Shown here piece by piece: positions 2,140 to 26,004 of a DNA stretch of 64,000 nt (position 1 is the stretch's first letter; the number at the start of each line of letters is the position of its first letter). The notes under the pieces are model-generated. The model saw only the letters and a program-made list of their open reading frames with translations, was not told the origin of the DNA and made no database searches. The position numbers and the translations under genes are program-made. The stretch is from Cyanobacteria bacterium P01_A01_bin.123 (GTDB lineage: Bacteria > Cyanobacteriota > Cyanobacteriia > Phormidesmidales > Phormidesmidaceae), in the NCBI GenBank assembly GCA_039815185.1, contig JBCBZT010000023.1:32001-96000 (forward strand), written 5' to 3'.

Positions 2140-3864
2140 ATGCGTTTTTCTCGTTTTGCTCAATGCTGGGTGTGCTTCGTTTTGTCACTGCTGTTGGTGA
2201 GCGGTTGTCATCGCTGTTTGAATCGCCCGGCTTCATCCCTTTCGGTGGTAGAACCGCCTATTGTGACTCCAGAAGTACTGGCTGGGCATACCCTGGTGCC
2301 CTTGGTTCAGCCAGGGCCTTGGCCCGATATCACAGGTTTGATTGGCTACGGCGATCGCCTCTGGTTTGCTAATAGTGTTGCTTTTGGCAATCATAATTCT
2401 GCAGATGTTTACAGCTACGCGCCAGCAACTGGGCAAACGCGCTACGAACGGCATCTTTTTAGTCAAAGTGTCGGCAAGCCAGCCGTGGCGGATGGATTGC
2501 TGTACTGGCCTTTTGAAGATCCTCGGTTTTCTGCTGACTTAGGCGAGTATATGGTTACTAACGGAGAAGACTGGCAATGGCGTCTCTTCCCTAATGGTGA
2601 AGCGTTTCACGTTCATACCATGGCTGCTCAAGGTGACTCGCTATTTGCAGGGACGGGTGCTTGGGCGGGTAGATTGCAGCGATCGCAAGATGGGGGGCAA
2701 ACCTGGCAAGTCATCTACGAGCACCCCACTCCAGACAGACAGGTTAGCCGTGTCACCCAACTAGCTGTGCTAGACGAGCAGCTGTATGTCGGCATCACTG
2801 CCCGCCAAGAAGCTGGTATCAAACTCCTGCGGTGGGATCAAGAGATGCTCCAAACGATTGACAGCTGGCCTAGGGGTAAACGTGTCAGTGATTTAACCAC
2901 CTATGATGGCTGGCTATACGGGATTAATCTGAATCCAGACGATAGCACTGCCATCTGGCGCACCCATGACCAGCAGACTGAACCAGTGGAAGCGTTAAAC
3001 GGTTATCCCATAAGGGCATTAGCTGCTGGTTCAGATGCTCTGTGGGCAGTGAGCAGCAATGAGGCAGGCGGATTTCTTTGGCATAGTTCAGATGGCGTAG
3101 CGTGGACTGCTGCCCAGCAGTTCCAGACATTGCGACCGCTGGATGTTGCCGTCTATGCTGGCAACGTCTACGTGGGGGCAAGGGATGAAGGTGGGCGCGG
3201 TGTTTTATTAGGGCCAACTGCTCCAGAGAGCGCTGGTGAAGCAACTTCGACACAAATGCCAACTATCCAGGCTGTATCCCCATCTCCCCAGCAGTTGCAA
3301 GCCATGCTGAATCAGCTAGATGAGGTGATGGCAAATCGCTCAAGCTACGCCAATGGCAACACCCAAGATGTGCTGTCTCAGACGTTAAAACCCCTTGCTA
3401 TCAGCAGTATGCCAGAGGTTGGCGAAGCCCTATCACAGCGTTTAGGCCACTCACCCCCGCAGGTGGATGCAACGCTATTCGACGATGTTGTTACAGAACC
3501 CGCGACAGATGTGCTGCAGTGGTACTTGCTTTGGGCGATCGCTCTGAATGGTCACGGTCAGATTCCAGTTGAGCTGCTGGCTATCCCTTGGACAACCCCC
3601 AGTAACTCTCGAGAAAAGTATTGGCAACCCGTTCCTGCTGCTGCTTGGGCCGTTGCTCAATTAGGTCAAGCCGATGTTGAGACCCTAGCCGCCTTAATCA
3701 ATCGCCTCAGCTTCAAAGATGATCCCATTTGGCTCAAAGGCGATTTTATTGGGGCCTTGAGTGCGTTAACGGGCGAACAATTTGGCTACGATCAGGGCGC
3801 CTGGCAAACCTGGTGGGCACAGCAAGCTAACGATTTCCTTAACGGGGTCTCAGCCTTAAGCTGA
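2140..3864 (+). CDS. Putative lipoprotein with BNR/Asp-box beta-propeller and helical C-terminal domain
   Basis: Signal peptide with lipobox LVSG-C23; Asp-box motifs RSQDGGQTW and HSSDGVAW; starts 11 nt after the upstream stop. Confidence 0.7.
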   Translation: MRFSRFAQCWVCFVLSLLLVSGCHRCLNRPASSLSVVEPPIVTPEVLAGHTLVPLVQPGPWPDITGLIGYGDRLWFANSVAFGNHNSADVYSYAPATGQTRYERHLFSQSVGKPAVADGLLYWPFEDPRFSADLGEYMVTNGEDWQWRLFPNGEAFHVHTMAAQGDSLFAGTGAWAGRLQRSQDGGQTWQVIYEHPTPDRQVSRVTQLAVLDEQLYVGITARQEAGIKLLRWDQEMLQTIDSWPRGKRVSDLTTYDGWLYGINLNPDDSTAIWRTHDQQTEPVEALNGYPIRALAAGSDALWAVSSNEAGGFLWHSSDGVAWTAAQQFQTLRPLDVAVYAGNVYVGARDEGGRGVLLGPTAPESAGEATSTQMPTIQAVSPSPQQLQAMLNQLDEVMANRSSYANGNTQDVLSQTLKPLAISSMPEVGEALSQRLGHSPPQVDATLFDDVVTEPATDVLQWYLLWAIALNGHGQIPVELLAIPWTTPSNSREKYWQPVPAAAWAVAQLGQADVETLAALINRLSFKDDPIWLKGDFIGALSALTGEQFGYDQGAWQTWWAQQANDFLNGVSALS

Positions 3865-5014
3865 TATGCACTAGATTTCGGAGTGGCTCAGGGGCAGTTG
3901 GATGAAGAATCTGGGTAATGGATTGAAAACCACTGGATGCATCCGGATAGACAAATGTTGATGCTTCTTGTTCGGCAACATACGCATAGATAGCCAGTTC
4001 TTCAAGCAAATATATGCATGATCGATTGACGTAATAGTCAAAACGTTGGGAATCTTGTTGAAGATACCTCTTAACAAAGACGTCAGCAAAGTTACGAACA
4101 GCAGTAGAAAAAGTTTTGTCAGCTTCAAATAGCCATCGTATCTCTTCAGCATAAGCTTGGAATTTCTCCTCAGCCAAGACATCAGAGAAGAATCGCATTT
4201 CGAAGCAACAGTGATCTGCATATCGATCAAAGATAGATAATTTCTCATCTCTGATTTTACGTCCAAAACTGATTGCACGATTTAAAGCATGCTGTTCTGA
4301 AAAACCTTGCATTTCTAAAACAATTTGATAGGCAAGATCACCGATTAAAACCTGGCAGTTGGAAAAATTCTGACTAATCCACTCAGTCATTCCTGCCAGC
4401 TTGGCCGTTGTAAAGTTCTTATCTTGCAAACTGAAGCCTAACATACAGGTCTCGTACTTTTGCAGTTGCCCCAAAGCCGATTCAGGCTTAACGGTAACGA
4501 CTTGGGCTTCATATCGAGCACTGGTTTTAATTTCAATATTTTGATGAGGTTTAGCCACACATCGGTAATCTTCAAAGCTCATGCGAATCCGCTGAGCTTG
4601 AGATTGAACACAGAAGGAAATTTCTTGAAAAATATGTAACTCTTGGGTGAAAAATACTTCTAAGTTAAACAGGCACCCCAACGGTGGTAAAGTACCTATT
4701 TCATAATCAGGAAACAACTTCTGAGTTTGGCCTTTGCCTACAAAATCGATGTTGGGATTATTGAGAGAAACCCGTAGCGAGTCTAACTCGATTTTACGCG
4801 TAACAGGCACCACAATCATCGCATATCGATTGGGAGCAGTGCAGATCAGGACTGCTTCAATTAGCTCATAACCTAGGGAAAACTCATCAACCGCAATATC
4901 TTGGAGCGTGTAAGCTGGTGAGTAGGAAACCGTGAGATATCGTATTTTCTGGCTATCTAACAAATCCTTGATAGGGTCAAGCGCATTTGTTTTAGAGAGT
5001 GCAAAAGCTGCCAT
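3839..5014 (-). CDS. Fusion of YbaK/ProX-like aminoacyl-tRNA deacylase domain (aa ~12-156) and tRNA-dependent cyclodipeptide synthase domain, XYP type (aa ~167-391)
   Basis: N-terminal part has LFPDYEIGTLPPLG (YbaK GxxxP loop) and RIRMSFEDY. C-terminal part has CMLGFSLQDKNF (S195), W..F...VLIGD, SCIYLLEEL (Y335/E339) and FVYP (Y356/P357). Confidence 0.85.
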   Translation of the reverse strand: MAAFALSKTNALDPIKDLLDSQKIRYLTVSYSPAYTLQDIAVDEFSLGYELIEAVLICTAPNRYAMIVVPVTRKIELDSLRVSLNNPNIDFVGKGQTQKLFPDYEIGTLPPLGCLFNLEVFFTQELHIFQEISFCVQSQAQRIRMSFEDYRCVAKPHQNIEIKTSARYEAQVVTVKPESALGQLQKYETCMLGFSLQDKNFTTAKLAGMTEWISQNFSNCQVLIGDLAYQIVLEMQGFSEQHALNRAISFGRKIRDEKLSIFDRYADHCCFEMRFFSDVLAEEKFQAYAEEIRWLFEADKTFSTAVRNFADVFVKRYLQQDSQRFDYYVNRSCIYLLEELAIYAYVAEQEASTFVYPDASSGFQSITQILHPTAPEPLRNLVHISLRLRPR

Positions 5015-5207
5015 AGGAAAGACTCTTTCGATTTAGATAGCTAGATAGAACGATTTGACTATCACACTAGTCCAATTTTTCCCATTCCAACGATGTAATT
5101 AACGATTCTATTCGAGGCACTGCCGACCGTCCCCGGAAATTTAGGATCAAACTGCTAAAAGTCTTAATCCTAAATTTCCTCTGCTCTGTTTAGTTTAACG
5201 ATGACCG

Positions 5208-6158
5208 TTATGCCCAGAAACCACTGCCTTGGTATGTCACGCCGGGGATAAACCAACTTTGAGGATTGACGTAGCGAAAGCGGATATCAACCTCGTCGAT
5301 CGCAGCTCGGGCTTTGGTTGAAAGGTCATGGGATGCAGCCACAAGATTTTGAGCGATGCGGTCTGGATTAGTTGATTTAGGAATAACACTTGTTCCCCGG
5401 TGAATCGCCCAGGCGATGAGGAGTTGTGCAGGCGTTAGCCCTTCGTCGCTGGCAACAGACTTGACCCGATCATTTTCTAGCACGGGGGGCTCGTCACTGG
5501 CTTTCATGCTGTCGGGGCGATCGCGAGAGCCCAGGGGTGAGTATGCCGTCAAGTGGATGCCTTGATCTTGGCAGTAGGCTAGCAGTTCGTTTTGGGGGTT
5601 GTAGGGATGCAGTTCCACTTGGTTGACAGCTGGAGTGGCGCCACTCTCTGTGATCAACTGATCGAGCTTTGAGATACTGAAATTAGAAACCCCGACACTT
5701 TTCACCAGTCCTTTGTCGCGGAGCTTCAGCATGGCCTCAAAGGTTTTGGATAAAGGCATGTCAGGTAAGGGCCAAAATCCTTCTGCATCCTCCGGCATGA
5801 CTAAGCCGGGACGAAAGGCGACGGGCCAATGCATGAGATACAAGTCGATATAGTCAAGACCGAAGGCGGTAAGCGTTGCCTGACAGCCCGCCTCAACATC
5901 ATCGGGGGCGTGGAAACTGTTCCAAAGTTTAGAGGTGACAAAGACGTCTTCGCGGGTGACGTTACCGTCTGCAATAGATTCGCAAATGGCGCGACCCACC
6001 TCTTTTTCGTTGCCATAGATCCAAGCGCCGTCGATATGGTGGTAACCAATGCGGAGGGCTTCTTTGACGGCTTGATAGGCGTCCCCTTCGTGGGACTTCC
6101 AGGTGCCGAGACCGAAAGCAGGAATTGTGTTGCCGTCATTGAGGGTAAATGTCTTCAT
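5208..6158 (-). CDS. Aldo/keto reductase (AKR1/5-like)
   Basis: FGLGTW, HIDGAWIY, VTSKLWN, DLYLMHWP, GVSNF, NQVELHP, AYSPLG, VIPKS. Confidence 0.95.
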   Translation of the reverse strand: MKTFTLNDGNTIPAFGLGTWKSHEGDAYQAVKEALRIGYHHIDGAWIYGNEKEVGRAICESIADGNVTREDVFVTSKLWNSFHAPDDVEAGCQATLTAFGLDYIDLYLMHWPVAFRPGLVMPEDAEGFWPLPDMPLSKTFEAMLKLRDKGLVKSVGVSNFSISKLDQLITESGATPAVNQVELHPYNPQNELLAYCQDQGIHLTAYSPLGSRDRPDSMKASDEPPVLENDRVKSVASDEGLTPAQLLIAWAIHRGTSVIPKSTNPDRIAQNLVAASHDLSTKARAAIDEVDIRFRYVNPQSWFIPGVTYQGSGFWA

Positions 6159-14289: not shown

Positions 14290-14883
14290 TTAGCCTGAAT
14301 ATGCCCTTGACTCTACTGTAAACATAGGAATGTCCTCCATTTCAGATGGGGTTAGAGCATACTGCTCACACACTAAACTTAAGCGGCTTCCGATTGTTTT
14401 GACGGGATTTACCGCATGGGTCAAATCACCTTGAAAGTAAATGAGAGAATTAGCGTGAGGAACAATTTTCCCAACGTGACGTTTGGCTGATTTGAGGATT
14501 AATTCTCCCCCGCTCATATTTTCGGGTATTCGTACATAGAGCACACTGACTAAGAAGGGAGGTTCAATTGTTTTGCAATACGATCGTAAAGAACGATCAA
14601 TATGAGGATCGACACGGGAACCTTCTTTCAGCAGTAAAGGGTTTAGATAAAAAGCATTACAGTCCGGCTGAATTGCGATCTCTAGATAAGGTTTGAGGAA
14701 TGGAAATTTCTGCTCAACTATAGGCAACCCATCACGTTGGAAAACGATGGAGAATCCTTTTGTCTGAACAAAATCTCGATTTAGGTTATTGATAGCGAAA
14801 TAAGAATTTGAAGTGATTTTATGCCACAGTTTATTGAGGTAACGATCAGACAAAACGTTATTTTGGATTTGGTAATATTTCAC
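14290..14883 (-). CDS. 2OG-Fe(II) oxygenase family protein
   Basis: HxD (PHID), GGEL, distal His (LTHAV), RxS (RLSLV). GTG 14883 is the likely start. Confidence 0.85.
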   Translation of the reverse strand: MKYYQIQNNVLSDRYLNKLWHKITSNSYFAINNLNRDFVQTKGFSIVFQRDGLPIVEQKFPFLKPYLEIAIQPDCNAFYLNPLLLKEGSRVDPHIDRSLRSYCKTIEPPFLVSVLYVRIPENMSGGELILKSAKRHVGKIVPHANSLIYFQGDLTHAVNPVKTIGSRLSLVCEQYALTPSEMEDIPMFTVESRAYSG

Positions 14884-15209
14884 CTTGTCTGTTCCCATAG
14901 AATTTGTTCAGCCGTTCCAGCTAAAAACTCAACTCGCTCATGTGGGGTTGCTGCCATTCTCATATCTGTATTGGGTTCGATTGCCATAACCTGAACATCT
15001 CGATCTGCCAGCAATCTTGCCCCAATTCCTGTCCCTGCTCCAATATCAGCAGCAACTAATTGAGTTTGAGAATTCAAGCCTGACAGAATTGCGTCAATCG
15101 CTGAAGCGGCATGAATTGGGCGATATTTTTCATAATCTTCGCTCCGCCCAGAGAAATAGTTCAACGAGTTTGTTGCTGAATCTGAGGCACTAGAGAAATC
15201 AAAACTCAT
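14880..15209 (-). pseudogene. Truncated class I SAM-dependent methyltransferase (N-terminal ~100 aa only)
   Basis: Y.KYRP, ADIGAGTGI, AIEPN, GTAE, then a premature stop; downstream motifs are absent. Confidence 0.75.
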
Positions 15210-24574: not shown

Positions 24575-25750
24575 TCAGGTTGTCTTCCCAACCGTAACCA
24601 AATATAGGGCAGCTTCCTCCGCTCCATCGATATCGAGTAACTGATTGAGCGGATCGTCGAAAAATGCCCCGATGCTGCATACGCCAAGGCCCAACGCCGT
24701 GGCTGCTAGATAAAGGTTTTGGCCCAGATGCCCGGCTTCCATCAGCACATAACGGTAGGTGCGCTCATGATATTTCCAGCGGGTGCGCTGAAAAATGCCG
24801 GATACGACAAAACACACATTGGCTTCTCCTAAGAATTCTTGGTTGAGTCCTGCTTGAATCAGCGGTTGGCGTAAGTCCCCAGCCTTCACCAGTTCTAGTT
24901 TGTGGTGTTCGATAGCGTGGTGGTATAGCCCAGGTTCTAAGCCTTCAACGTGATTAATAATCGGGTAAATCTCCAGGGGATATAGGGCACCAGAAGACGG
25001 TACGGTGCGGAAGTCTCGTTCATCCCAGGTGATGCCTTGGGCCAGGTGTAAGACCTGGGATAGGTGGGCTAAAGATAAGGTGCTGTTTGTGTTGTAGTTG
25101 CGGCGTGATCGCCGTTGGGTAAGCGTGGTGACGAGATCGGGTATTGTGCCGCCGTTTACGGTAGATGGGTTGATTCCTGGATCTGGGAGATCAATCTGTT
25201 GTGCGTTCGGATAGGTCTTGTAGAGGGATGGCTTACTGCCCCAGTTGAGTAGAGTGCCAATCGTTTCTGCATATCCGGGCTGACTCCACCGGTGATAGAG
25301 CAGGCCAAGGTCTGGTTCCGCGTCGGATAATTCCAAGCTTTCACGTGGCGTGATCAAGCGATTGAAGCCAATGCCGGTCGCGATCGCGAGAATAGCCAGC
25401 ACAATATAGCGCCGCCCGGTAAGTTTTGGGCTGGCAGCTTTGACCGGGGCTGGACCGATTGCTGAAGTAACTGTTGTTTGGGGAAGTGTTGTTTGTGGAA
25501 GGGGTTTACTGATGCGATCGCTTGGGTTTTCAGCCCTGGTACGAAACCGATTGCGGACAAACGCTTTGACCCTAACCCAGGTCTGGATCAAATGGGCCAC
25601 AGCTAAAGACATCCAAAGGTACCCGACCTGGCTGTGAAATCCGAAGTGATGCAGGCCCATCGTATCTGCAATCAGGCCCGTAATAAACACATAGATGCTG
25701 CTACCCACCAACAAAACGATCACGACGTAGTCGAGATCACGTCGTTTCAT
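24575..25750 (-). CDS. SagB/ThcOx-type nitroreductase-fold flavoprotein with N-terminal His-bearing membrane domain
   Basis: RRSRRNY, RTVPSSGALYP, KYHERTYRY, EAGH, GVCSIGAF. N-terminal TM helices carry His residues. GGAGG RBS before ATG 25750. Confidence 0.88.
   Translation of the reverse strand: MKRRDLDYVVIVLLVGSSIYVFITGLIADTMGLHHFGFHSQVGYLWMSLAVAHLIQTWVRVKAFVRNRFRTRAENPSDRISKPLPQTTLPQTTVTSAIGPAPVKAASPKLTGRRYIVLAILAIATGIGFNRLITPRESLELSDAEPDLGLLYHRWSQPGYAETIGTLLNWGSKPSLYKTYPNAQQIDLPDPGINPSTVNGGTIPDLVTTLTQRRSRRNYNTNSTLSLAHLSQVLHLAQGITWDERDFRTVPSSGALYPLEIYPIINHVEGLEPGLYHHAIEHHKLELVKAGDLRQPLIQAGLNQEFLGEANVCFVVSGIFQRTRWKYHERTYRYVLMEAGHLGQNLYLAATALGLGVCSIGAFFDDPLNQLLDIDGAEEAALYLVTVGKTT
25472..25501. 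repeat. 15 bp tandem duplication encoding LPQTT twice in the linker
   Basis: TGTTGTTTGGGGAAG followed by TGTTGTTTGTGGAAG. Confidence 0.8.
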
Positions 25751-26004
25751 ATTGCCTCCAGGGACTTTCGCCCCGTTTACCCAGACTTTCACATCATAGC
25801 CAAATGGCTACAAGGTTAGAGTCCAGGAGGCAACCTTAACTAGGCTGCAACCACAGCTCGATAGCGTGCCTTACCATCCCGAACCTGTTGAATAGCTTGA
25901 TTGATATCTTTCATTGCAAACTGTTCGCACATCGGCGTGATGTTGTGGGTAAAGAGCAATTTTGATCGGGTTGATCGATAACACTCTAGAAGTGCAATTA
26001 GTTT

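Follow-up and report, generated by a model that had tools for sequence, protein, structure and literature searches.

A gene on the minus strand of a 64,000-nucleotide stretch of DNA from Cyanobacteria bacterium P01_A01_bin.123 (assembly GCA_039815185.1, contig JBCBZT010000023.1, positions 32,001 to 96,000; hereafter the window) encodes a protein, P0001, in which an N-terminal domain with the fold of the YbaK/ProX aminoacyl-tRNA-editing proteins is joined to a C-terminal cyclodipeptide synthase (CDPS) of the XYP type. Our preferred account, to which we give an even chance, is that P0001 is an active XYP CDPS whose former editing domain now serves as a non-hydrolytic binding or sensing module. 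The synthase half would take two aminoacyl-tRNAs and release a cyclic dipeptide, most likely of hydrophobic residues. The N-terminal domain would have descended from a stand-alone family of YbaK/ProX-type aminoacyl-tRNA deacylases (the 3OP6/lpg1207 type), keeping the fold and the pocket loop (G107..P110-P111, D149) and exchanging the hydrolase lysine for a conserved acidic residue, E53. Its ligand, bound without hydrolysis, may be an aminoacyl group, the CCA end in aminoacylated form or a small molecule related to these, and by this binding the domain would supply the synthase with substrate, select substrate for it or gate it. Enzymatic activity, product, and the ligand and role of the N-terminal domain are all predicted here.

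An earlier reading of this DNA, made from the sequence alone, had described one uninterrupted open reading frame (ORF) of 391 residues, and a single frame of that length without interruption is what we find (Table 1). Contigs from other public sequencing runs were aligned to window positions 3700-5300 as a check on the frame. Contig X5 (8900 bases, from a different study) covers the whole interval with 39 substitutions and zero gaps, and X8, from a third study, has indels at 3834 and 5204 only, both beyond the ORF; the former is a 3-base insertion within the end of the convergent neighbouring gene, which encodes a 574-aa protein. Among the substitutions listed within the ORF (n=24), 18 are synonymous and 6 non-synonymous, a split that refers to the listed ones, with 21 further differences on the stretch beyond them; the share of the N-terminal domain is 6 synonymous and 2 non-synonymous. 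The P0001 gene is real, lies in one frame and is under purifying selection, N-terminal domain included. The assembly that contains the window was built from metagenomic data, and two genes could on that ground have been joined by an assembly or frameshift error; we regard this as practically excluded, because the contigs of the two other studies hold the same frame without indels, and because many unrelated genomes encode homologues of equal length and architecture.

The C-terminal half had been assigned to the CDPS family by the sequence-only reading, and each of our searches bears this out. Pfam CDPS (PF16715) matches aa 185-357 with an E value of 3e-12 (47.2 bits; cut-off 27), NCBIfam TIGR04539 (tRNA_cyclodipep) matches at E 6e-23 (81.5 bits; cut-off 45), and a PDB sequence search finds SsBcmA (9J61) at E 1.7e-36 over aa 166-391. 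An AlphaFold2 model of P0001, computed from 8 family sequences (pLDDT 85.4, pTM 0.79), was compared with known structures using Foldseek; its CDPS half aligns with 9J61 at a template-modelling (TM) score of 0.91 of the target and 33% identity, and with 5OCD, 4Q24, 5MLQ and 3OQV.

The motifs G193-F-S195-x-x-D198-x-x-F201, Y335-x-x-x-E339 and V355-Y356-P357, all noted in the earlier reading, are present, as is a further one given then as W..F...V.IGD, the spacing of which needs correction to W212-4 residues-F217-4 residues-V222-L-I-G-D226. By alignment, S195, Y335, E339, Y356 and P357 of P0001 correspond to S43, Y185, E189, Y206 and P207 of BcmA. The first four of these BcmA residues have been equated with AlbC S37, Y178, E182 and Y202 (PMC11580168, cited throughout for the accessible part of its text), and the proposed correspondence of P0001 to AlbC thus holds by way of BcmA. 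All five residues are invariant in 26/26 fusion sequences, which span 25-69% identity. D198 at the X position (AlbC N40) and Y356-P357 instead of Y-H make P0001 a member of the XYP subfamily, as had been called.

The positions of the P1 and P2 pockets were taken from the lists for BcmA (PMC11580168). At P1, P0001 reads MGLGFIYF against FGLGCIFM in BcmA (4/8 identical), the latter being characteristic of XYP enzymes that form cL-X products, and at P2 it reads FDVKDSS against FDYKGFS. Two family members, P0014 and L035, have a P1 pocket identical to that of BcmA (FGLGCIFM), and Nostoc sp. NIES-3756 is placed in the cLI/cLL sheet of the supplement to Gondry et al. 2018 with the pocket FGLGCVFM (PMC5816076, likewise cited for its accessible part). 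Members of the family may plausibly make a hydrophobic product of the Leu type. A pocket-based product prediction for P0001 itself was dropped, its P1 and P2 diverging from all comparison entries in the accessible tables.

The N-terminal domain and its lysine position

The N-terminus had been described as YbaK/ProX-like, and it matches Pfam tRNA_edit (PF04073) at aa 50-149 with an E value of 9e-8 (32.7 bits; cut-off 25.5). A PDB sequence search places 3OP6 first over aa 14-156 at E 6e-20 (E 1e-20 in a second search), and in the Foldseek comparison this half of the model aligns with 3OP6 at TM 0.86 and with YbaK 1DBU at TM 0.76, and also with E. coli YbaK (2DXA) and ProX (8HUZ). The three motifs picked out earlier, VVP..RKI.L..L (aa 68-80), LFPD.E.G..PP.G (aa 100-113) and I.M...DY (aa 143-150), are in place. 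3OP6 is lpg1207 of Legionella pneumophila, labelled 'uncharacterized / oligo-nucleotide binding protein', and it shares with P0001 an HSPAYT-like start, a VxP strand and a GxxPPxG loop. A literature search found no paper on 3OP6 or lpg1207; the family may be one of ProXp-7/8/9, which is a guess on our part. Proteins of this type stand alone, are ~150-170 aa long and carry an invariant Lys, Glu and Cys (K44, E84 and C94 in the numbering of P0103), whereas the corresponding residues of P0001 are E53, K94 and Y104. The N-terminal domain has the same fold and belongs to the same Pfam family as the INS, YbaK and ProX editing proteins, the known ones of which have the aminoacylated 3' terminus of tRNA as their site of action; those enzymes hydrolyse mischarged tRNA and need the lysine, whereas the domain of P0001 is fused to a synthase and has glutamate in its place.

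The lysine is invariant in 18/18 stand-alone relatives of the N-terminal domain, and a profile of these 18 aligns it with K46 of H. influenzae YbaK (numbered by counting on the 1DBU chain), with the lysine of YKT in E. coli YbaK and with that of AKT in ProRS INS. K46 is important in YbaK. In P0001 this conserved catalytic lysine of the INS superfamily is replaced by E53. The column holds Glu or Asp in 17 of 23 fused N-terminal domains, with Lys in 4, Arg in 1 and Ser in 1, as against Lys in 35/39 unfused domains, where the four other rows are two fusion-type fragments (P0041 and P0090) and two alignment-shifted rows. The invariant Glu of the stand-alone proteins (18/18) is likewise exchanged, for Lys in 10 and Gln in 2 of the 12 crown fusions, such that E53 and K94 form a reciprocal charge swap relative to the stand-alone Lys/Glu pair. 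G107, P110 and P111 of the pocket loop are invariant in 8/8 of the closest family members and in 12/12 crown members, and D149 is retained in P0001. Because the lysine has given way to an acidic residue in most fused domains while the GxxxP loop is kept, classical proofreading is unlikely and a non-hydrolytic module likelier. Among the roles suggested by the sequence-only reading for this domain, proofreading is thus the least supported, and recruiting, selecting or sensing the substrate is preferred.

A hydrolytic alternative deserves attention nonetheless. If the N-terminal domain were still an active aminoacyl-tRNA deacylase, it could proofread in cis, either for a clean product or to spare essential charged tRNAs, and both families do act on the same aminoacyl ester; the retained fold, GxxxP loop and D149 would then find a ready explanation. 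We nevertheless think this unlikely. The acidic lysine column speaks against it, as does the loss of ProRS editing in the K279A variant, the standard editing-defective enzyme (PMC3973320, accessible part of the text), and the domain has decayed, loop included, in related CDPSs, which would be unexpected for an essential hydrolase.

Several observations weigh against the preferred account of a non-hydrolytic module on an active synthase, and the first two of them also favour cis-proofreading. The lysine is kept in 5/26 fusions (P0015, P0021, P0023, P0031 and L008), so that hydrolysis may be the original activity, one that some members could still have, and K94 (E84 changed to Lys in 10/12 crown members) could return a lysine to the pocket from another strand. 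The conserved Glu could itself act as general base. On the synthase side, P0001 deviates from BcmA at 4/8 P1 and 3/7 P2 positions, and both it and its 69% relative have D358 where BcmA has G208, a residue at which the substitution G208A abolished BcmA activity (PMC11580168); with a pocket that differs from that of BcmA, D358 included, the product and even the activity of P0001 are uncertain. Many cyanobacterial XYP CDPSs were, moreover, inactive in E. coli (Gondry et al. 2018; PMC5816076). Finally, the case for signalling made below is based on gene neighbourhood, which varies by lineage.

Other BcmA-like CDPSs carry N-terminal extensions of 90-165 aa that were missed by hidden Markov models (HMMs). 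When 14 of these were aligned jointly and compared with the YbaK-like domain, hhalign returned a probability of 97% (E 7.8e-11), and the region of the GxxPP loop is lost in them. CDPSs with such degenerate extensions include P0027, P0028, P0029, P0034, P0037, P0053, P0058, P0064, P0093, P0096 and P0113. The N-terminal domains form a series from lysine-bearing, through acidic with the pocket intact (P0001), to degenerate, and the degenerate forms fit a domain that kept a structural or binding role after catalysis was lost. They would also fit a functionless relic, with P0001 being a conventional CDPS that serves a small natural-product pathway; many relatives do without the domain (47/109 in a tree of CDPS domains are stand-alone), an aldo/keto reductase gene lies upstream of the P0001 gene, and a low-GC gene for a 2-oxoglutarate (2OG) oxygenase lies 9 kb off. 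We consider this reading improbable. The N-terminal domain is under purifying selection and about as conserved as the CDPS half (for example 68 vs 72%, 92 vs 90% and 54 vs 54% in Nostocaceae pairs), its pocket residues are invariant, the lysine column is consistently acidic and not random, and a tailoring enzyme adjoins the fusion gene in none of the loci examined (window, Nostocaceae, Methylococcaceae and Zetaproteobacteria).

A complex prediction for the N half against the CDPS half scored 0.00, which says nothing either way. Relatives of the N-terminal domain also occur as tandem arrays with 2 or 3 tRNA_edit domains per protein, and one is fused to a region like domain 3 of eRF1 (P0030, P0035, P0102 and P0155).

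Distribution and gene neighbourhoods of the fusion

The fusion is not limited to the genome of the window. A word-indexed search found 7 other clusters of P0001 length, 6/7 of which are recorded as having both Pfam domains, and an exhaustive search of representatives returned 1079 proteins at E <= 1e-3. Among the best 150 of these, scanned with HMMs of the two halves, 25 proteins with a near-complete CDPS domain have both halves, and the family comprises at least 25 clusters at 50% identity. Those of its members that are named belong to Anabaena, Nostoc, Synechococcus, Methylococcaceae/Methylomonas, Bacteroidota, Spartinivicinus and a metagenome-assembled genome of the Zetaproteobacteria, and their annotation in every case is just 'tRNA-dependent cyclodipeptide synthase'. 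The CDPS-domain tree (FastTree, midpoint-rooted, with support values left aside) was used as a hint only, and hints that YbaK fusions are old and paraphyletic.

Within lineages the fusion is sparse. It was found in 1/41 genomes around the window, namely that of the window itself, and in 0/40 of its relatives; it is present in full length in 7/201 genomes of a Nostocaceae-family sample, where one copy is interrupted by a stop codon in frame, and in 6/201 genomes of a Methylococcaceae-family (Methylomonas) sample. The interrupted Nostocaceae-family copy (L023; G167:C228:7047-8195) has an in-frame TAA and is possibly a pseudogene; the contig that carries it is short and stops a little way upstream. 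The P0001 gene has a GC content of 0.41 in surroundings of ~0.53, and Nostocales fusion genes have 0.30-0.34 against ~0.41 around them. In the first eight related loci and the window the GC content of the fusion gene is below that of most or all neighbouring genes, and the later Nostocaceae loci agree, with the Methylococcaceae locus L037 an exception that lacks this contrast. Given the low GC content and its absence from 40/40 relatives searched, we read the P0001 gene as a horizontally acquired, mobile single-gene unit. A comparison with an empty site gave no conserved synteny in G004, which alone among the relatives has an orthologue (55% identity) of the neighbouring 574-aa protein.

The neighbours of the gene differ between lineages. 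Those in the window encode the aldo/keto reductase upstream, LtrA, the convergent 574-aa protein, which is beta-propeller-like, and a GAF-GGDEF-EAL protein. A PAS-GGDEF-EAL gene adjoins the fusion in 3/6 Methylococcaceae loci (L002, L004 and L038), permeases of the Dpp/Opp type follow it in three (L001, L002 and L004), and a REC-Hpt fragment lies beside it in L037. The order in L002 (3208-11105), L004 (3602-11521) and L001 (2613-4777) is a family-5 solute-binding protein or PAS-GGDEF-EAL gene, the fusion and two Dpp/Opp-type permease genes; in L038 (1173-4444) the fusion is convergent to a PAS-GGDEF-EAL gene of the same type, without the transporter. Co-transfer of the fusion with a nearby GGDEF-EAL gene was considered and rejected, since the window (GAF) and Methylomonas (PAS) proteins share 37% identity, in the catalytic part only. 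A hybrid histidine kinase gene precedes the fusion in the Zetaproteobacteria locus.

The Nostocaceae loci have an arrangement of their own, in which genes for a Metallophos-SIR2 protein (~720 aa), an nSTAND1-WD40 protein (~1300 aa) and the fusion follow one another on one strand in 7/7 loci long enough to judge (L003, L005, L006, L007, L034, L035 and L036), with flanking genes that vary. The full-length SIR2 protein and the full-length fusion occur together in 6/201 genomes of the Nostocaceae-family sample, and each occurs alone once, on short contigs. The three genes disagree in their pairwise identities (for example 91/75/54% and 73/62/81%), and the trio looks like a recombining cassette.

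This cassette raises the possibility that P0001 is the effector or signal generator of an anti-phage or programmed-death conflict system, which would drain charged tRNAs or make a cyclodipeptide alarm under the control of a partner sensor. The conserved gene order, the co-occurrence and the mosaic divergence of the trio speak for such a system, and the SIR2 protein matches the PADLOC models PDC-S60 and 'Effector'. We think it quite unlikely for P0001 all the same. The fusion protein itself matches no PADLOC model, the window has no SIR2 or nSTAND1-WD40 neighbours, and a search for the SIR2 protein gave no match in the genome of the window (G000) or in the Methylomonas and Zetaproteobacteria genomes; the seven Nostocaceae loci, moreover, are not independent observations because the genomes are kin. 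A role as a drain on charged aminoacyl-tRNA, also raised in the sequence-only reading, would have indirect support in Nostocaceae alone, via the SIR2/STAND cassette that the window and its genome lack.

Sister proteins of the fusion carry other partners. A C-terminal cNMP_binding (cyclic nucleotide monophosphate-binding) domain is present in 19/65 long hits scanned among BcmA-like CDPSs (P0033, P0045, P0054, P0059, P0060, P0066, P0067, P0069, P0073, P0075, P0097, P0099, P0106, P0107, P0126, P0130, P0132, P0140 and P0146), and these cluster as one group in the rough CDPS-domain tree. A receiver domain forms the N-terminus of P0051 (697 aa), whereas the long N-terminus of P0047 (713 aa) has no domain assignment.

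Since the neighbours are signalling and defence genes and the sister fusions carry sensor domains, the contexts suggest that the cyclic dipeptide of our preferred account would be produced in a regulated, signal-like manner rather than in an antibiotic pathway. A broader view, which we hold only tentatively and think unlikely, is that a whole clade of BcmA-like CDPSs is a signalling device and not a family of natural-product enzymes. It would translate the state of the pool of charged tRNAs, or some other ligand that it senses, into a messenger in the form of a cyclic dipeptide; the former proofreading domain of the YbaK-fused branch, turned by the Lys-to-Glu change from a hydrolase into a reader, would read the aminoacylated tRNA end and gate the synthase. 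This view is prompted by the occurrence of the same core joined to cNMP-binding and receiver domains and beside cyclic di-GMP enzymes, hybrid kinases and the SIR2/STAND cassette.

Comparison with known systems

The nearest characterised relative of the synthase half is BcmA (SsBcmA, 9J61), which makes cyclo(Ile-Leu) in the bicyclomycin pathway (PMC11580168). BcmA is the top match to aa 166-391 in both sequence and fold and has the same Ser/Tyr/Glu and Y-P residues; it is a stand-alone enzyme (a 249-residue chain in 9J61), whereas P0001 adds a 160-aa N-terminal domain, differs in P1 and P2 and has no tailoring genes nearby.

Known multi-domain CDPSs are of the NYH type with a C-terminal P450, methyltransferase or 'ABC-transporter' partner (Gondry et al. 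2018; PMC5816076), and only such C-terminal fusions of NYH enzymes are mentioned in the accessible part of that paper. Those partners are domains for tailoring or for ligand binding; the partner in P0001, by contrast, has an aminoacyl-tRNA-editing fold and is N-terminal, on an XYP enzyme. CDPS 71 has a CDPS domain that in isolation made cWY, and CDPSs can therefore function within larger proteins (PMC5816076). The family members of Nostoc sp. NIES-3756 and Methylococcaceae Sn10-6 both appear in the pocket tables of the accessible supplement, where an extra domain is unmentioned (PMC5816076). According to a 2024 review, the members of the INS superfamily other than INS are single-domain proteins.

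The sequence-only reading knew of no characterised fusion of the two families, and we found none in the literature searched, subscription-only papers lying outside the search. The YbaK-CDPS architecture is present in databases and undescribed in that literature. It is unmentioned in the accessible part of a 2026 review of aminoacyl-tRNA-dependent enzymes, and neither a CDPS nor a YbaK term occurs in the account of STAND conflict systems by Kaur et al. 2020. No description of the cNMP-binding or receiver CDPS fusions was found either, in searches poorly suited to this point.

Few protein families other than CDPSs and INS-type editing domains work on the aminoacyl ester of tRNA away from the ribosome. 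A natural fusion of these two offers a direct handle on how synthases choose and hold aminoacyl-tRNA, a matter of continuing debate for XYP enzymes. The change from Lys to Glu, if we read it correctly, would be a clear case of reuse of the editing fold for a non-hydrolytic job. The contexts described above (cyclic di-GMP enzymes, hybrid kinases, SIR2/STAND proteins, and the cNMP-binding and receiver fusions) point to roles of cyclodipeptides beyond antibiotic precursors in cyanobacteria and methanotrophs. We note also that earlier activity screens may have taken the N-terminal domain for a start-codon problem.

Features of the gene and its surroundings

Table 1. Positions of the P0001 gene, its domains and key codons, and the upstream region, in window coordinates
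Feature	Position	Strand	Evidence
Whole gene of the 391-aa YbaK-like and XYP-CDPS fusion protein P0001, stop codon included	3839..5014	minus	ORF, Pfam, PDB matches, AlphaFold2
N-terminal YbaK/ProX-fold (INS-superfamily, 3OP6-like) domain, aa 11-160	4535..4984	minus	PF04073, 3OP6, Foldseek
Codon of Glu53, at the catalytic Lys position of YbaK (K46) and ProRS INS	4856..4858	minus	3OP6 K45 aligned with E53; profile alignment
Codon of Lys94, where stand-alone relatives carry an invariant Glu	4733..4735	minus	Column counts
G107-T-L-P110-P111, kept GxxxP aminoacyl-pocket loop of the editing fold	4682..4696	minus	Conservation; aligned with YbaK VGGISPLG
C-terminal XYP-type CDPS domain, aa 166-391	3842..4519	minus	PF16715, TIGR04539, 9J61, Foldseek
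Codon of catalytic Ser195 (BcmA S43, AlbC S37)	4430..4432	minus	BcmA alignment; 26/26 fusions
Y335-L-L-E-E339, catalytic Tyr and Glu (BcmA Y185, E189)	3998..4012	minus	BcmA alignment; 26/26 fusions
Y356-P357 of the XYP motif (BcmA Y206, P207)	3944..3949	minus	BcmA alignment; 26/26 fusions
Low-GC upstream intergenic region, presumed own promoter of the P0001 gene	5015..5207	minus	GC, repeat search

The 3' ends of the P0001 gene and the convergent 574-aa gene share 26 bases (3839-3864). A consensus scan of the upstream intergenic region found no sigma-70-like site. A promoter and terminator scan of 3500-5400 was uninformative, with 1 promoter-like site, inside the P0001 gene, against 3.2 expected by chance. 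No tRNA genes are present in the window.

The bicyclomycin cluster includes tailoring oxygenases. The sole 2OG oxygenase in the window is a 202-aa 2OG-Fe(II) protein (PF13640) encoded at 14290-14898 on the minus strand, and a tailoring cluster of the bicyclomycin kind does not accompany P0001. The oxygenase gene has a GC content of 0.40, like that of the fusion gene, with unrelated genes between the two, and it may be another foreign gene. At 24575-25792, also on the minus strand and 20 kb away, a gene encodes a 405-aa protein with a C-terminal domain of the nitroreductase family, to which the cyclodipeptide oxidase AlbA belongs.

Upstream of the P0001 gene, a perfect 13-bp inverted repeat with a 19-nt loop lies at 5135-5179, 29 nt past the stop codon of the aldo/keto reductase gene, where it might form a terminator hairpin or serve as an operator.

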